DNA of 64,000 nucleotides from an uncultured Dehalococcoidia bacterium. GTDB taxonomy: Bacteria > Chloroflexota > Dehalococcoidia > Lucifugimonadales > UBA3495. Of the stretch, positions 44,617-46,663 are shown in pieces (position 1 is the stretch's first letter; the number at the start of each line of letters is the position of its first letter). The notes below the pieces were generated by a model. The model saw only the letters and a program-made list of their open reading frames with translations. It was not told the origin of the DNA and searched no databases. The position numbers were made by a program, and so were the translations under genes. The DNA is taken from assembly GCA_964587795.1 (NCBI GenBank), contig CAZPMU010000011.1, forward strand, positions 2,162 through 66,161, written 5' to 3'.

Positions 44617-45246
44617 CTATTGGGGCTGGGACAGTTCTGAAAATACCTGGCGCCAGGTCTCTTCGTCACCGGCGCCCATTCCTTCCCGGTAAACAATAGT
44701 TCCATTGGTATCAAAAGCTATCTTGGTGGACTGAATGGTGACTCCCAGTTCTGCCATCATCTCAGTTGGGCCCGTGGCTATCGCCCAGGGGTAGCTGTTC
44801 TGTTCCTTATAGGCCTTAAGCACCGTCATCTCTTCCTTCAGGCCGGGGTGCAGACCGACAGCGTAGAAAGCCACGTCGTCGGCGTAGTCGGGATATATCT
44901 CCTTCATCCGCCGCAACTCGGCGGTGCAAACGGGTCAATAGGTGGCCCAGAAAAAGAGGAAGGTTGGCTGATTGGCCTCAATAAGGCTGGCAGAGGTGGT
45001 TGTGCTGCCATCCTCCAACACCAGGGTAAAGTCCGGTACCCGATTACCTAGCTGGTTGCCAGTTTCCGACGGTTCGGGAAAGTCGGAGGCCGTGAGAACA
45101 TACTCAGTTTCCGGGATTTCTTCCCTGGAAAACAGGGTAATTGACTGGCCGGACGACACCAGGTAGGCAGAGAAGACAAAGCCAACTACAGGGCCCAATA
45201 TGCCCAGGGCCAGGAGGACTTTGCCGATCCAACCTTTCCTTATCAT
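44617..45246 (-). CDS. membrane-anchored TlpA/ResA-like thiol:disulfide oxidoreductase, probable selenoprotein (U-P-V-C)
   Basis: Track ORFs 44935..45246 and 44617..44916 are in the same frame, separated only by TGA (44935-44937). The joined sequence reads NQPTFLFFWATY-U-PVCTAELRRMK, which is the FWATWCxPC redox motif. A SECIS-like hairpin follows. Confidence 0.75.
44908..44924 (-). promoter_or_regulatory. SECIS-like hairpin 10 nt downstream of the in-frame UGA
   Basis: The mRNA reads CCGCCG-AGUUG-CGGCGG (6-bp stem, 5-nt loop). Confidence 0.55.
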
Positions 45247-45589
45247 TATGCACCCCCTGTATGCCAGGTATTATAGTCGCAACAAAATACAATACAACGC
45301 TACAGTTTTCGAATAAATGCGGCTGTTAAGATTCGAGGCGTCGCTTACGGACCAAACCTTCATCCGCCTTAGGTGGGTCCGGAATTCTTGCCCATTAGTA
45401 TAGTGCAGATAGGCTTCCTGTCCTGGATTCCCGCTTTCGCAGGAAACAGGGCTGCGGCGGCCCGACTTAACCCTGACTATGAATTTTAACAAAAGGGGCG
45501 ACCCAAGGCAGAAATCACTTATTGCCCTGGGCCTTTTTGTGCTTAAAAGTTGGGGCCTGCCGTGCACCGGACCCTGGAAAAACCGGTTA

Positions 45590-46663
45590 CTACTGGTTGG
45601 CCAGGTCTGAAAACACCTGACGCCAGGTGTCTGGGCTACCGCCACCGAAACCGTCCCGGTAGGTGATGACACCCTGGGAGTTGAATGCAATCTTGGTTGA
45701 CTGGGAGGCGACGTTCAGGTTGGCCAGGGCCTGGCTCTCGTTGGCGGCTATGGCCACCGGCCACGGATAACCGTTCTTCGCCCGGTTGCTTTCCAGGCGG
45801 TCAAGATTGTCGAAGGAACTAGAAACTGCCACAGCGTAAAAGTTCACCTGGTCTGAAAAATCGGGGTATATGGACTTGAGCTGCCGCAACTCGGCAGCGC
45901 ACTGCCCTCAAGTTGTTGAGGTAAAGAAGAGGAAGGTTGGTTTCTCCTGCTCAATCAGGCCCGATGTTGAGACCATCGAACCGCCCACCAGTTCCAGGCC
46001 CAGGTCGGGCACTCGGTTGCCTACCTGGTTGCCCACTTCGGGTGGTGGTTCAACAACCACCGCAACGGGCGTAGCCGTAGGCTGCGGCGCGGGAGCGGCG
46101 GTGGCGGTGGGCTGCTGGGCCGGAGCCTGAGCGGGTTGTGGCGCTGCGGCAGGCGTTGAAGGCGATTCGTTGACCTGCGCCGGCGATGTTTCCATGGGTT
46201 GTGCGGGCGCTGACGGTTCCTGCTGGGGCGCGGCGGGTCCGGTGGCCTCAGCAGCGGGCTGGTCCTTGGGTTCCATGGCCTTCGCCATGGGCTCGGGCTG
46301 GGTTACCACGGTATTTTCGACCGCAACTTCGGCGTTGGCCGGCTGGTTAGTGGTCATGGCCTTGGCCGGTTCAGGCTGTGCCTGGACTTCGGTTGACGGC
46401 TTCATCCCGACTTCGGAACTGACCATGCTCTCGCCTGGCTGGGACCCGGTGGCGGGAGCGGGTTCCGCTGCCGCCTGGGGCTGGGTGGCGGGTTGGGCGG
46501 GAGAAGACTGACTGGCCTGGTCCGCCCGGGGCGCAGGCTCCTGTGGCTGTTCGGCGGCGCCGCAGGCCACCGCCATGGCCAGCAGCAATGCCGAGGTTCC
46601 CAGCGCCACCAGCTTGAAGGGCCGGCGTAACCGGAGAGTATGGCCTGGGGAAGAAATTTGCAT
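45590..46663 (-). CDS. lipoprotein-type TlpA/ResA-like thiol:disulfide oxidoreductase with Pro/Ala/Gln-rich linker, probable selenoprotein (U-G-Q-C)
   Basis: Track ORFs 45908..46663 and 45590..45889 are in the same frame, separated by TGA (45908-45910). The joined sequence reads EKPTFLFFTSTT-U-GQCAAELRQLK. It has a signal peptide ending LAMAVAC, and a SECIS-like hairpin follows the TGA. Confidence 0.75.
45880..45898 (-). promoter_or_regulatory. SECIS-like hairpin 9 nt downstream of the in-frame UGA
   Basis: The mRNA reads GCUGCCG-AGUUG-CGGCAGC (7-bp stem, identical AGUUG loop). Confidence 0.55.

Follow-up and report, generated by a model that had tools for sequence, protein, structure and literature searches.

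The SECIS element of Escherichia coli fdhF lies in the coding region and is characterized by a spacer of about 10-11 nt between the UGA and the stem, an apical G-U and a loop located 16 nt past the UGA. Selenoproteins of the UxxC kind have already been inventoried and comprise Prx-like, TlpA-like (cd02966), Redoxin, DsbA-like and DsbG-like types (PMC1088965, PMC2398784, PMC13188914). In BSepDB, two MAGs of Dehalococcoidia belong to the ten bacteria richest in selenoproteins (PMC13326102).

The current study deals with two tandem genes, designated A and B, in a 64-kb stretch of DNA that was analyzed as a whole (the window), and with the gene family to which they belong. The closest published relatives are the Prx-like/Redoxin UxxC proteins, exemplified by WP_010940744.1, HEU0032618.1 and MGB1650493.1. 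They share with the present family a domain of the thioredoxin fold that matches PF00578 and PF08534, a selenocysteine (Sec) for the first Cys of the CXXC motif and a small, sequence-predicted SECIS hairpin with an apical-loop G directly past the UGA. In contrast to this class, the family is found only in Dehalococcoidia/SAR202 among the recovered loci, is predicted to be always extracytoplasmic and occurs in tandem arrays and two-Sec fusions. Only about 30 active-site residues are shared with reads from the Sargasso Sea described as "thiol-disulfide isomerase-like" (VDFETDWuTWC), and the same holds true for the GOS Prx-like reads (FYRGFWUPPCRSELR); both sets represent other subfamilies. The accessible parts of the Sargasso and GOS supplements contained neither QSTKIAF nor GNxVGNRVPDF, two motifs of the family.

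Since UxxC types have been inventoried and Dehalococcoidia are rich in selenoproteins, the family is a further case of an already known kind of selenoprotein. An initial sequence-only reading of the locus had described extracytoplasmic selenoproteins as uncommon, which is fair, but as a claim of novelty it was overstated in view of these inventories. It is conceivable, if rather doubtful, that tandem and two-Sec forms, the 17-nt SECIS and a QSTK motif in place of the cis-Pro define a distinct, hitherto undescribed subfamily of exported TlpA-like selenoproteins; this proposal refers to a family limited to Dehalococcoidia/SAR202 among the recovered loci, several of them from sponge metagenomes, and sets it apart from the published UxxC class via the GOS and Sargasso examples only. 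If true, it would imply that selenium-based redox reactions unlike the known functions of TlpA and ResA take place at the cell surface.

Two tandem genes with an in-frame UGA

The organization of both genes is summarized in Table 1. Gene A reads ...NQPTFLFFWATY-TGA-PVCTAELRRMKEIY... and gene B ...EKPTFLFFTSTT-TGA-GQCAAELRQLKSIY..., with a single frame on both sides of the TGA in either case, and they share the motif GNQ(L/V)GNRVPD(F/L) about 35 codons 5' of this codon. The ORF pairs separated by nothing but a TGA and the motif upstream of them, as recognized in the sequence-only reading, are thus all present. The joined product of gene A matches the Pfam families AhpC-TSA (PF00578; 1.1e-12, 48.4 bits) and Redoxin (PF08534; 3.4e-12, 46.8 bits) above their gathering cut-offs of 26 and 26.6, and that of gene B yields 1.2e-8 (35.4 bits) and 4.4e-6 (27.0 bits), also above the gathering score; all matches extend across the TGA. 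The ATG of gene A is preceded by GGGGGTG at a distance of 5 nt and the ATG of gene B by AAGGAG at 7 nt. Orthologs of gene A are present in the related loci L001, L002 and L004-L009, those of gene B in L001, L002 and L004-L012.

Table 1. Positions of the two UGA-containing genes and their features in the window
Feature	Position	Strand	Remarks
Gene A, TlpA/ResA-like thioredoxin-fold protein	44617..45246	minus	209 codons, stop TAG, one UGA predicted to be read through
Predicted Sec codon of gene A	44935..44937	minus	in-frame UGA, UPVC active site, residue 104
N-terminal hydrophobic segment of gene A	45160..45231	minus	GKVLLALGILGPVVGFVFSAYLV, R/K residues ahead; read from translation
SECIS-like hairpin A	44908..44924	minus	CCGCCG (44924-44919), AGUUG (44918-44914), CGGCGG (44913-44908); 10 nt past UGA; RNAfold, family covariation
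Gene B, lipoprotein-type TlpA/ResA-like protein	45590..46663	minus	357 codons, stop TAG, one UGA predicted to be read through
Predicted Sec codon of gene B	45908..45910	minus	in-frame UGA, UGQC active site, residue 252
Signal peptide of gene B with lipobox	46562..46663	minus	..LLLAMAVAC/GAAEQ; read from translation
P/A/Q-rich low-complexity linker of gene B	46046..46561	minus	about 170 residues, from lipid anchor to catalytic domain
SECIS-like hairpin B	45880..45898	minus	GCUGCCG (45898-45892), AGUUG (45891-45887), CGGCAGC (45886-45880); 9 nt past UGA; RNAfold -20.2 kcal/mol, z = -2.0; family covariation

The membrane anchor of A and the lipoprotein signal and P/A/Q-rich linker of B, which had been pointed out before, are visible in the translations. 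The hydrophobic segment of gene A is retained in all A-type orthologs and probably represents a signal anchor that places the catalytic domain outside the cytoplasm; gene B is predicted to encode a lipoprotein. B-type orthologs and the two-domain forms also possess linkers resembling that of gene B. Inspection of the translations revealed a lipobox or a TM anchor in nearly all family members and a lipobox-type Cys after a hydrophobic stretch in nearly all single-domain members. Twin-arginine export of gene B was considered on account of its RLRRPFKL motif and dismissed, because the RR varies in the orthologs (RLSRPF, GRPPVK) and no TAT_signal match was obtained.

The UGA is ancestral and the sequence behind it is under selection

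Among 151 family sites the codon at the Sec column is TGA in 117, TGT or TGC in 31, TAC in two and TAA in one. The TGA-bearing relatives come from genomes and metagenomes of Dehalococcoidia/SAR202. The predicted Sec aligns with the first Cys of the CXXC motif in Cys-containing homologs (P0001 and others), whose active sites read FFFATWCVTC and ATWCPVC, and in sequence matches to solved TlpA/ResA/CcmG-type chains (PDB 2m72, 4hqs), which bears out the original placement of the TGA. Many loci harbor two to four tandem copies, all with a TGA, and two-domain, two-Sec fusions also belong to the family. Decayed third copies exist in L004 (TAA for TGA and a damaged loop) and L006/L081 (extra stops). 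Genes A and B are related as paralogs, with a TGA that goes back to the ancestor of the entire family. The earlier preference for recoding over two independent nonsense mutations consequently holds with respect to recoding, but not with respect to independence, because the paralogs have inherited their TGA.

The dN/dS ratio 3' of the TGA is 0.04-0.11 for gene A and 0.06-0.15 for gene B; the overall range of 0.04-0.15 compares with 0.04-0.26 5' of the TGA. Purifying selection acts on the downstream part as strongly as on the part that precedes the TGA, and synonymous change is lowered across the 11 codons past the TGA. No homolog that naturally ends at the TGA position was found among the relatives, which answers an objection anticipated in the sequence-only reading. 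The decayed third copies could be taken as a hint that A and B themselves are pseudogenes with nonsense mutations at the catalytic codon; this is highly improbable given that the TGA is retained at 117 sites over dozens of species, that all of the close orthologs under comparison keep an open frame of 105 codons past it, that dN/dS is low in this part and that the hairpin described below covaries.

A covarying hairpin downstream of the UGA

RNAfold predicts both hairpins that had been proposed 9-10 nt past the UGA. Their conserved core consists of a 6-bp stem with the loop AGUUG that begins 10 nt past the TGA in both genes. The two arms are fully complementary in A and B as originally stated, but close orthologs do not maintain the outermost C-G pair of hairpin A and have C/A (L001) or C/U (L002) in its place. 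Within the family this outermost position is paired in 90% of the sequences and the inner five pairs in 99-100%. In gene B, the window, L001 and L002 show no difference over the 33 nt that run from the TGA through the conserved helix, and the flanking synonymous sites vary.

The anticipated conservation of the hairpin in TGA-containing orthologs is evident from 100 distinct TGA sequences, in which 98.0% of the helix cells are paired, compared to 79.4 +/- 1.0 in shuffled data (reached in none of 500 shuffles). Double changes were observed in 104 helix cells versus 27.5 in the shuffles, and compensatory changes occur at five of the six helix pairs. Sliding the 3' partner by one to three columns as a control reduced pairing to at most 68%, and RNAalifold recovered the identical helix unaided. 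The loop is AGUUG in 83 of these sequences, AGUUA in 16 and CGUUG in one, i.e. AGUUR in 99 of 100. The mean folding energy is -12.3 kcal/mol for the TGA forms versus -4.5 for the Cys forms, 23 of 24 of which lack the hairpin. The helix is not strictly exclusive to Sec forms, because the Cys form L003/P0001 has a hairpin at this site (loop AGCUG); we interpret it as the trace of a recent Sec-to-Cys conversion.

The family hairpin resembles the fdhF element of E. coli in its location in the coding region, the similar spacer, the G-U in the loop and the distance of 16 nt between UGA and loop. It differs in being shorter (6 bp, 5-nt loop, 17 nt in total), in the absence of the bulged U and in its loop, AGUUR, which is invariant, specific to the family and at the same time encodes Glu-Leu; binding of SelB is predicted. 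No Rfam family matches the hairpin, and around genes A and B no SECIS family was retrieved with the gathering cut-off or with a limit of E <= 10. Two occurrences of TGA-N6-TGY-N6-GAGTTRC were counted in the window, where 100 shuffles give an expectation of 0.00. Of 114 hits to a stricter hairpin motif in related loci totaling 1.58 Mb (both strands), 106 are family sites, and the search for the same SECIS in other gene families retrieved a single doubtful extra site in these 1.58 Mb.

Selenocysteine machinery and use of TGA

The 64-kb window harbors none of the genes selA, selB, selC (tRNA-Sec) and selD. For the SAR202 bin22 (MPMM), to which L012 with its three TGA copies belongs, two SelA, one SelB and one SelD have been reported (PMC5649159). 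Among the related loci, L043 encodes a full SelB, complete with its winged-helix domains, at a distance of 6.7 kb from its family gene, and in L116 a tRNA-Sec (Rfam RF01852, 66 bits) is located directly upstream of a TGA-containing family gene. The 3,500,881-bp contig of L122 carries SelB and a SelD homolog with a TGA at the position of Cys17 of the E. coli protein; judged by its identical length, it is chromosome OY762634.1, which bears the TGA family gene of L057.

Cys-for-Sec recoding with Sec-like tRNAs has been described in some bacteria. The UGA could accordingly be read without selenium, either by hairpin-stimulated near-cognate read-through (Trp or Cys) or by a SelB-like factor in conjunction with a Cys-tRNA with UCA anticodon, since the inserted residue is invisible from sequence alone and the window is devoid of Sec machinery. 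We consider this very unlikely in the light of the canonical tRNA-Sec, the full SelB and the Sec-containing SelD of the relatives; moreover, a Cys product would require only TGC or TGT and no hairpin, as exemplified by the low-GC Cys forms. A and B are very probably paralogous selenoprotein genes in which the UGA is decoded as Sec by means of the hairpin.

Seven long ORFs of coding-type composition end in TGA in the window, whose GC content is 60%. A codon-usage test on the flanks of every TGA in the window highlighted no TGA other than those of the two family sites and that of an ordinary stop/start junction at 9798; no further selenoprotein genes were detected. A genetic code with UGA as a sense codon (code 4 or 25), for which only the in-frame TGAs speak, is a negligible alternative: it is at odds with the seven TGA-terminated ORFs, with the restriction of a two-sided coding signal plus hairpin to the two family sites and with the GC content. 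Pseudogenes and a reassigned code are hence practically ruled out, because dN/dS past the TGA is low and TGA terminates other genes of the window. An ARAGORN tRNA-Lys at 6743-6826 was examined as a Sec-like tRNA and discarded; it is located inside an ORF, its predicted folding is not superior to that of shuffled sequences, and it lacks an Rfam tRNA match even with a limit of E <= 10.

Relationship to TlpA/ResA-type oxidoreductases

The best matches among solved structures and NCBIfam models are TlpA, ResA, CcmG (DsbE) and StoA. The family agrees with them in the position of the W/Y-C-x-x-C motif, in the membrane or lipid anchor at the N-terminus and in domain size, but has a Sec for the nucleophilic Cys. 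All NCBIfam scores stay far under the cut-offs; the models DsbE, ResA and StoA yield 38.1, 35.8 and 32.2 bits versus required scores of 123, 170 and 210, respectively. The alignments suggest a thioredoxin fold with UXXC at the start of helix alpha-1 and a protein that works like the TlpA/ResA group; it is not the equivalog of a named NCBIfam member. In pairwise sequence alignments the cis-Pro of 2m72 and 4hqs falls on the Ser of QSTK, a motif invariant in the family, so that the reaction may deviate from the chemistry of canonical TlpA/ResA proteins. A single-sequence AF2 model of P0001 has a pLDDT of 40, too low for use.

In contrast to TlpA, ResA and CcmG, the family genes are not linked to genes for cytochrome c maturation, Sco or CcdA. 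Conserved neighbors are PGI-6PGD-G6PD, UvrD, SDR, an aminotransferase and a HAD hydrolase, and the neighborhood analysis indicated no functional partner for genes A and B. A CcdA/DsbD-like protein would be expected as electron donor; none is encoded within about 7 kb of the family genes. A scan for promoters and terminators gave nothing above shuffle expectation, and no copy of the intergenic region between B and A was found elsewhere.

Proposed mode of expression and function

We propose that the 17-nt hairpin with its 6-bp stem and AGUUG loop, 10 nt past the UGA, acts as a bacterial SECIS. A complex of SelB, GTP and Sec-tRNA(Sec) would bind to it and deliver Sec at the UGA, and translation would proceed to proteins of 209 (A) and 357 (B) residues. 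The hairpin is formed by codons of the peptide x-(A/S/V)-E-L-(R/Q)-x, with which the helix behind the active site begins, and this accounts for the conservation of the peptide in the Sec forms. The products would be thioredoxin-fold thiol:disulfide oxidoreductases of the TlpA/ResA/CcmG type with a U-x-x-C center. The N-terminal anchor (A) or a lipid anchor with a long flexible linker (B) would tether them to the cytoplasmic membrane on its outer side. Most likely they would reduce disulfides or oxidized Cys/Met residues of exported substrates via a selenenylsulfide intermediate. We infer Sec insertion, export, topology and the reductase direction alike.

Annotation and distribution of the family

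Public gene calls cut the family at the UGA and list the pieces as "hypothetical protein" without a domain, as expected from the sequence-only reading, which regarded the genes as missed by ORF calling. Of the 150 best matches that the post-UGA half obtained among cluster representatives of a protein library, 112 began at or just past the UGA. The public callers' proteins of 96-103 aa that start just past the TGA might suggest that each gene is in fact two genes, whose N- and C-terminal halves act as separate polypeptides. This explanation has next to no probability: the thioredoxin fold would be cut inside CXXC, neither a conserved start codon nor a ribosome-binding site is found past the TGA, gene B offers only a TTG within the hairpin loop and the AGUUA-loop variants not even that, and the Cys forms are single polypeptides.

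The pattern TGA-N6-TGY-N6-GAGTTRC serves as a family signature with essentially no false positives, which could be used to repair the annotation of Dehalococcoidia/SAR202 genomes. The family leaves the knowledge about bacterial UGA recoding unchanged, but it would equip an abundant lineage of marine and sponge-associated bacteria with several selenium-dependent redox enzymes on the cell surface. High-GC lineages contain the Sec forms and low-GC pelagic SAR202 the Cys forms, which provides a natural comparison of Sec and Cys in the same family.

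Two tandem genes with an in-frame TGA at the active site

The interpretation of the tandem TlpA/ResA-like paralogs A and B as UXXC selenoproteins, which a sequence-only reading had proposed, is supported by the position of the TGA at the CXXC Cys, a covarying hairpin, a low dN/dS past the TGA and the Sec machinery of relatives. Our analysis supports a well-conserved selenoprotein family that is systematically broken apart by public annotation. The coordinates, frames, motifs and hairpins described for the two genes are all present in the sequence. The active-site joins read ...FFTSTT-U-GQCAAELRQLKSIY... 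in gene B and ...FFWATY-U-PVCTAELRRMKEIY... in gene A, and the motif GNQ(L/V)GNRVPD(F/L) lies upstream of the TGA in both. Shuffles predict 0.00 occurrences of the pattern TGA-N6-TGY-N6-GAGTTRC, and the window contains two.

Features of genes A and B in the window and of the Sec genes on the related contig L122
Feature	Position	Strand	Remark
Tandem pair B and A	44617-46663	minus
Gene B	46663..45590	minus	single frame broken by one TGA at 45910-45908
Gene A	45246..44617	minus	single frame broken by one TGA at 44937-44935
Hairpin B	9 nt after UGA	minus	GCUGCCG/AGUUG/CGGCAGC
Hairpin A	10 nt after UGA	minus	CCGCCG/AGUUG/CGGCGG
QSTKIAF codons, B	45653-45673		invariant in six-sequence alignment A1
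QSTKIAF codons, A	44680-44700		invariant in six-sequence alignment A1
SelB and SelD homolog, L122	10001-11863 and 17103-18038	minus	about 5 kb apart

With Cys put in place of the TGA, both products exceed the gathering scores of the Pfam families AhpC-TSA and Redoxin, with matches that span the TGA; the NCBIfam matches (DsbE, ResA, StoA, MauD) are all sub-threshold. The nearest solved structures belong to thioredoxin-fold proteins of the TlpA/ResA/CcmG type, in which the first Cys of the CXXC occupies the alignment column of the TGA.

That A and B are pseudogenes is highly improbable in view of the pairwise dN/dS between the window and six to eight orthologs (0.04-0.15 after the TGA, 0.04-0.26 before it) and of a frame after the TGA that comprises 105 codons in all B and most A orthologs. 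Even less credible is a reassigned code with UGA as a sense codon: seven long ORFs of coding-type composition terminate in TGA, and a coding-potential test showed coding signal on both flanks of a TGA at no more than three places, which are the two family sites and one ordinary gene junction. The chance that each gene represents two separate genes is just as negligible, given that the cut would land within the CXXC, that a conserved start codon is absent after the TGA and that the Cys forms are single chains.

Distribution of the family in Dehalococcoidia

The initial protein search returned three matches, namely the full-length Cys homolog P0001 with FFFATWCVTCRAELRRMKEIW and two fragments, one of which begins directly 3' of the TGA in an A ortholog and the other of which stops at FFTSTT of a B ortholog. 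The tandem B-A order is preserved, with the two TGAs and their hairpins, on both contigs that contain the fragments (L001, L002); in L001 the flanking 6PGD/G6PD genes are retained as well, and a long convergent gene lies downstream, at the place of the UvrD-type helicase of the window. The B-A spacer (window 45247-45589) comprises 343 nt compared with about 160 nt in L001 and L002. No second copy of the extra spacer sequence was found in the window or the fetched loci, and an Rfam search of the spacer gave only a non-significant match to DUF1874 RNA (E = 1.4). In the gene A ortholog of L002 (1170-1200), a 1-nt deletion in the QSTKIAF region causes a frameshift, which is either a sequencing or assembly error of this low-coverage contig or the mark of a pseudogene.

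A profile of six sequences retrieved 116 loci from GTDB genomes and JGI metagenomes. The strong matches all belong to Dehalococcoidia/SAR202 (Chloroflexota), many of them chromosome-level MAGs, and the closest relative is OZ219949.1 with 89% amino-acid identity. In total, 151 family sites were obtained by local tblastn with subsequent codon extraction, in which the codon of the first-Cys column is TGA in 117, TGT/TGC in 31, TAC in two and TAA in one. Of 97 loci that match the family strongly, 19 contain two, seven contain three and two contain four TGA copies. Within L004-L119, the mean GC content of Sec-form loci is 0.595 (n = 76) versus 0.414 in Cys-form loci (n = 20), which are mostly from pelagic SAR202; AT-rich genomes may struggle to keep the GC-rich hairpin, or the habitats may differ in selenium supply.

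Fusions and degraded copies also occur. L048 (8206-9843) and L050 (~8300-9890) each contain one lipoprotein ORF with two TlpA-like domains that are separated by a P/T/A-rich linker, and a TGA with hairpin in each domain gives two predicted Sec residues per protein. The protein P0012 likewise consists of two domains; the first has Cys, and the protein ends at the TGA of the second. The third tandem copy of L004 (~10600-11260) has TAA at 10927 as Sec codon and a loop change from GAG to GGG, and in the third copies of L006 (~8780-9440) and L081 (~3600-4260) an additional TGA stands at the Trp position of FWATT and further stops occur in the N-terminal region; all three look like pseudogenised paralogs beside intact ones.

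Conservation of the SECIS-like hairpin

The predicted hairpin follows both UGAs as described, and its conservation was investigated in a gap-free alignment of 100 distinct 54-nt segments around the TGA. In the helix (columns 20-25 with 31-36), 98.0% of the cells are paired versus 79.4 +/- 1.0 in shuffles, none of which (0/500) reached the observed value. Both sides are changed in 104 cells compared with 27.5 in shuffles, and five of the six pairs show compensatory changes (CG/GC/UA, CG/UA/GU, GC/UA, CG/UA, CG/UA). Sliding the 3' partner by one to three columns as a control reduced the pairing to 23-68%, and RNAalifold predicted the same helix unaided. The first 11 codons after the TGA show depressed synonymous change (pS 0-0.48 versus dS 0.6-2.7 elsewhere), which points to selection at the RNA level.

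The loop reads AGUUG in 83, AGUUA in 16 and CGUUG in one of the 100 distinct TGA sequences; a spacer of 10 nt separates the UGA from the hairpin, the start of the loop lies 16 nt downstream of the UGA, and positions 2-3 of the loop are G-U. The SECIS of Escherichia coli fdhF is longer and has a bulged U, whereas the family hairpin is shorter and lacks this bulge. The loop coincides with Glu-Leu codons, which Sec and Cys forms alike conserve, and the stem with the codons on either side; the Sec forms have the peptide (A/S/V)-E-L-(R/Q) because loop and stem are built on those codons.

The mean folding energy of the 36 nt 3' of the codon is -12.3 kcal/mol in TGA forms versus -4.5 kcal/mol in Cys forms. 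Among the Cys forms, a hairpin occurs in P0001 alone (GCGCCG/AGCUG/CGGCGC), whose TGC codon is followed by a perfect 6-bp stem at the SECIS position (L003:668-700) with the loop AGCUG instead of AGUUR. In its active-site sequence, P0001 most resembles Sec forms, for example L028, L033 and L086, and hence looks like a recent Sec-to-Cys conversion, so that the hairpin is probably a fossil SECIS.

Selenocysteine machinery in relatives

The search for sel genes had a divided outcome: no homologs of tRNA-Sec, SelA, SelB or SelD were found within the 64-kb window, and they are present in relatives. The SAR202 MAG L043 encodes a 620-residue SelB (GTP_EFTU, domain 2, Beta-barrel_SelB, SelB-wing_2, SelB-wing_3) at a distance of 6.7 kb from its TGA family gene. 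On the 1.2-kb metagenome contig L116 (124-668, 1108-1246), trxA (WCAPC) is followed by tRNA-Sec (ARAGORN call; Rfam RF01852, 66 bits versus a cut-off of 47) and a family gene with ..FFFATW-TGA-MVCR, an arrangement that hints at a linkage of selC and the family in some lineages. OY762634.1 carries the L057 family gene. Three TGA copies are present in L012 (MPMM01000002.1), which corresponds to SAR202 bin22, and two SelA, one SelB and one SelD are listed for this bin (Table S4, Slaby et al. 2017; PMC5649159). Because relatives with family genes carry Sec machinery, a read-through of the UGA with another residue is unlikely. Two Dehalococcoidia MAGs rank among the top ten of BSepDB with 49 and 46 selenoprotein genes (PMC13326102).

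A search with the L043 SelB retrieved P0286 on L122, a contig of 3,500,881 bp. The SelD homolog about 5 kb from this SelB shares 43% identity with E. coli SelD (E = 3e-73) and was truncated to 295 aa by the gene caller; its in-frame TGA aligns with E. coli Cys17, and this SelD is therefore likely a selenoprotein itself.

Predicted localization and function

By inspection, the N-terminus of gene A comprises a basic stretch and a 23-residue hydrophobic segment that looks like a signal anchor, and gene B encodes a signal peptide with a lipobox (..LLLAMAVAC|G) and a linker of about 170 residues that is rich in P, A and Q. A lipobox or anchor could be read from the sequences of nearly all relatives, which suggests that the family is extracytoplasmic. 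By homology, both products are expected to act outside the cytoplasm as thiol:disulfide reductases whose nucleophile is a selenolate. In two pairwise alignments with PDB sequences, the cis-Pro of TlpA/ResA-type thioredoxin folds aligns with the Ser of the invariant QSTK, and the family may thus lack the canonical cis-Pro loop, a possible departure from TlpA/ResA. Conserved neighbours are PGI, 6PGD and G6PD (oxidative pentose-phosphate), UvrD, SDR, an aminotransferase and a HAD hydrolase; CcdA/DsbD was not found within about 7 kb of family genes.

Relation to known selenoproteins and public annotation

UxxC selenoproteins of the Prx-like (PF00578), Redoxin (PF08534) and TlpA-like (cd02966) types have been predicted since 2004-2005 and are included in a 2026 inventory (PMC1088965, PMC2398784, PMC13188914). 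The A/B family falls within an already described class, the thioredoxin-fold UxxC selenoproteins decoded by SelB and SECIS, and the richness of its lineage in selenoproteins is likewise known; worth pursuing are its own SECIS signature, its occurrence in tandem and as fusions with two Sec, and its predicted location at the cell surface. The Sargasso 'thiol-disulfide isomerase-like' reads (VDFETDWuTWC) represent a different subfamily, and so do the Prx-like GOS reads (FYRGFWUPPCR(S/A)ELR), whose BLASTP match to the A/B family covers only 30 residues around the active site. The stretch CR(S/A)ELR right after the UxxC is common to the GOS family and some A/B family members (PMC2398784, supplementary file 3), which suggests a similar SECIS module that may extend across both unrelated families. 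In the accessible part of the Sargasso and GOS supplements, neither QSTKI nor AELRR/AELQR was found.

The proposal that the genes had been missed by ORF calling proved right, since public calls break them into short pieces at the TGA. The post-TGA pieces of 96-103 aa are labelled 'hypothetical protein' without a Pfam domain, and the Cys forms are named 'peroxiredoxin family protein', 'thiol-disulfide isomerase/thioredoxin' or 'AhpC'. Among the best 150 matches of the post-TGA half in a 50%-identity representative library, 112 start within the first ~34 residues and are mostly short proteins; in the remaining 38, which are longer proteins, the match lies further inside, and all nine that were inspected have an active-site Cys in the domain that is matched.

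Other features of the window

An 84-nt tRNA-Lys(UUU) called by ARAGORN (6743-6826, minus) was rejected as a false positive; it lies inside the opposite-strand ORF 6399-7703 (plus), Rfam gave no tRNA match for it up to E <= 10, and its fold is no more stable than those of shuffled sequences (z = 0.3). A 417-aa ORF (30244-31497, minus) encodes an HNH endonuclease domain at its N-terminus; its GC content at third codon positions is 0.44, compared with 0.70-0.89 in 20 further long ORFs of the window that look coding, and it is probably a mobile or defence gene of recent acquisition.
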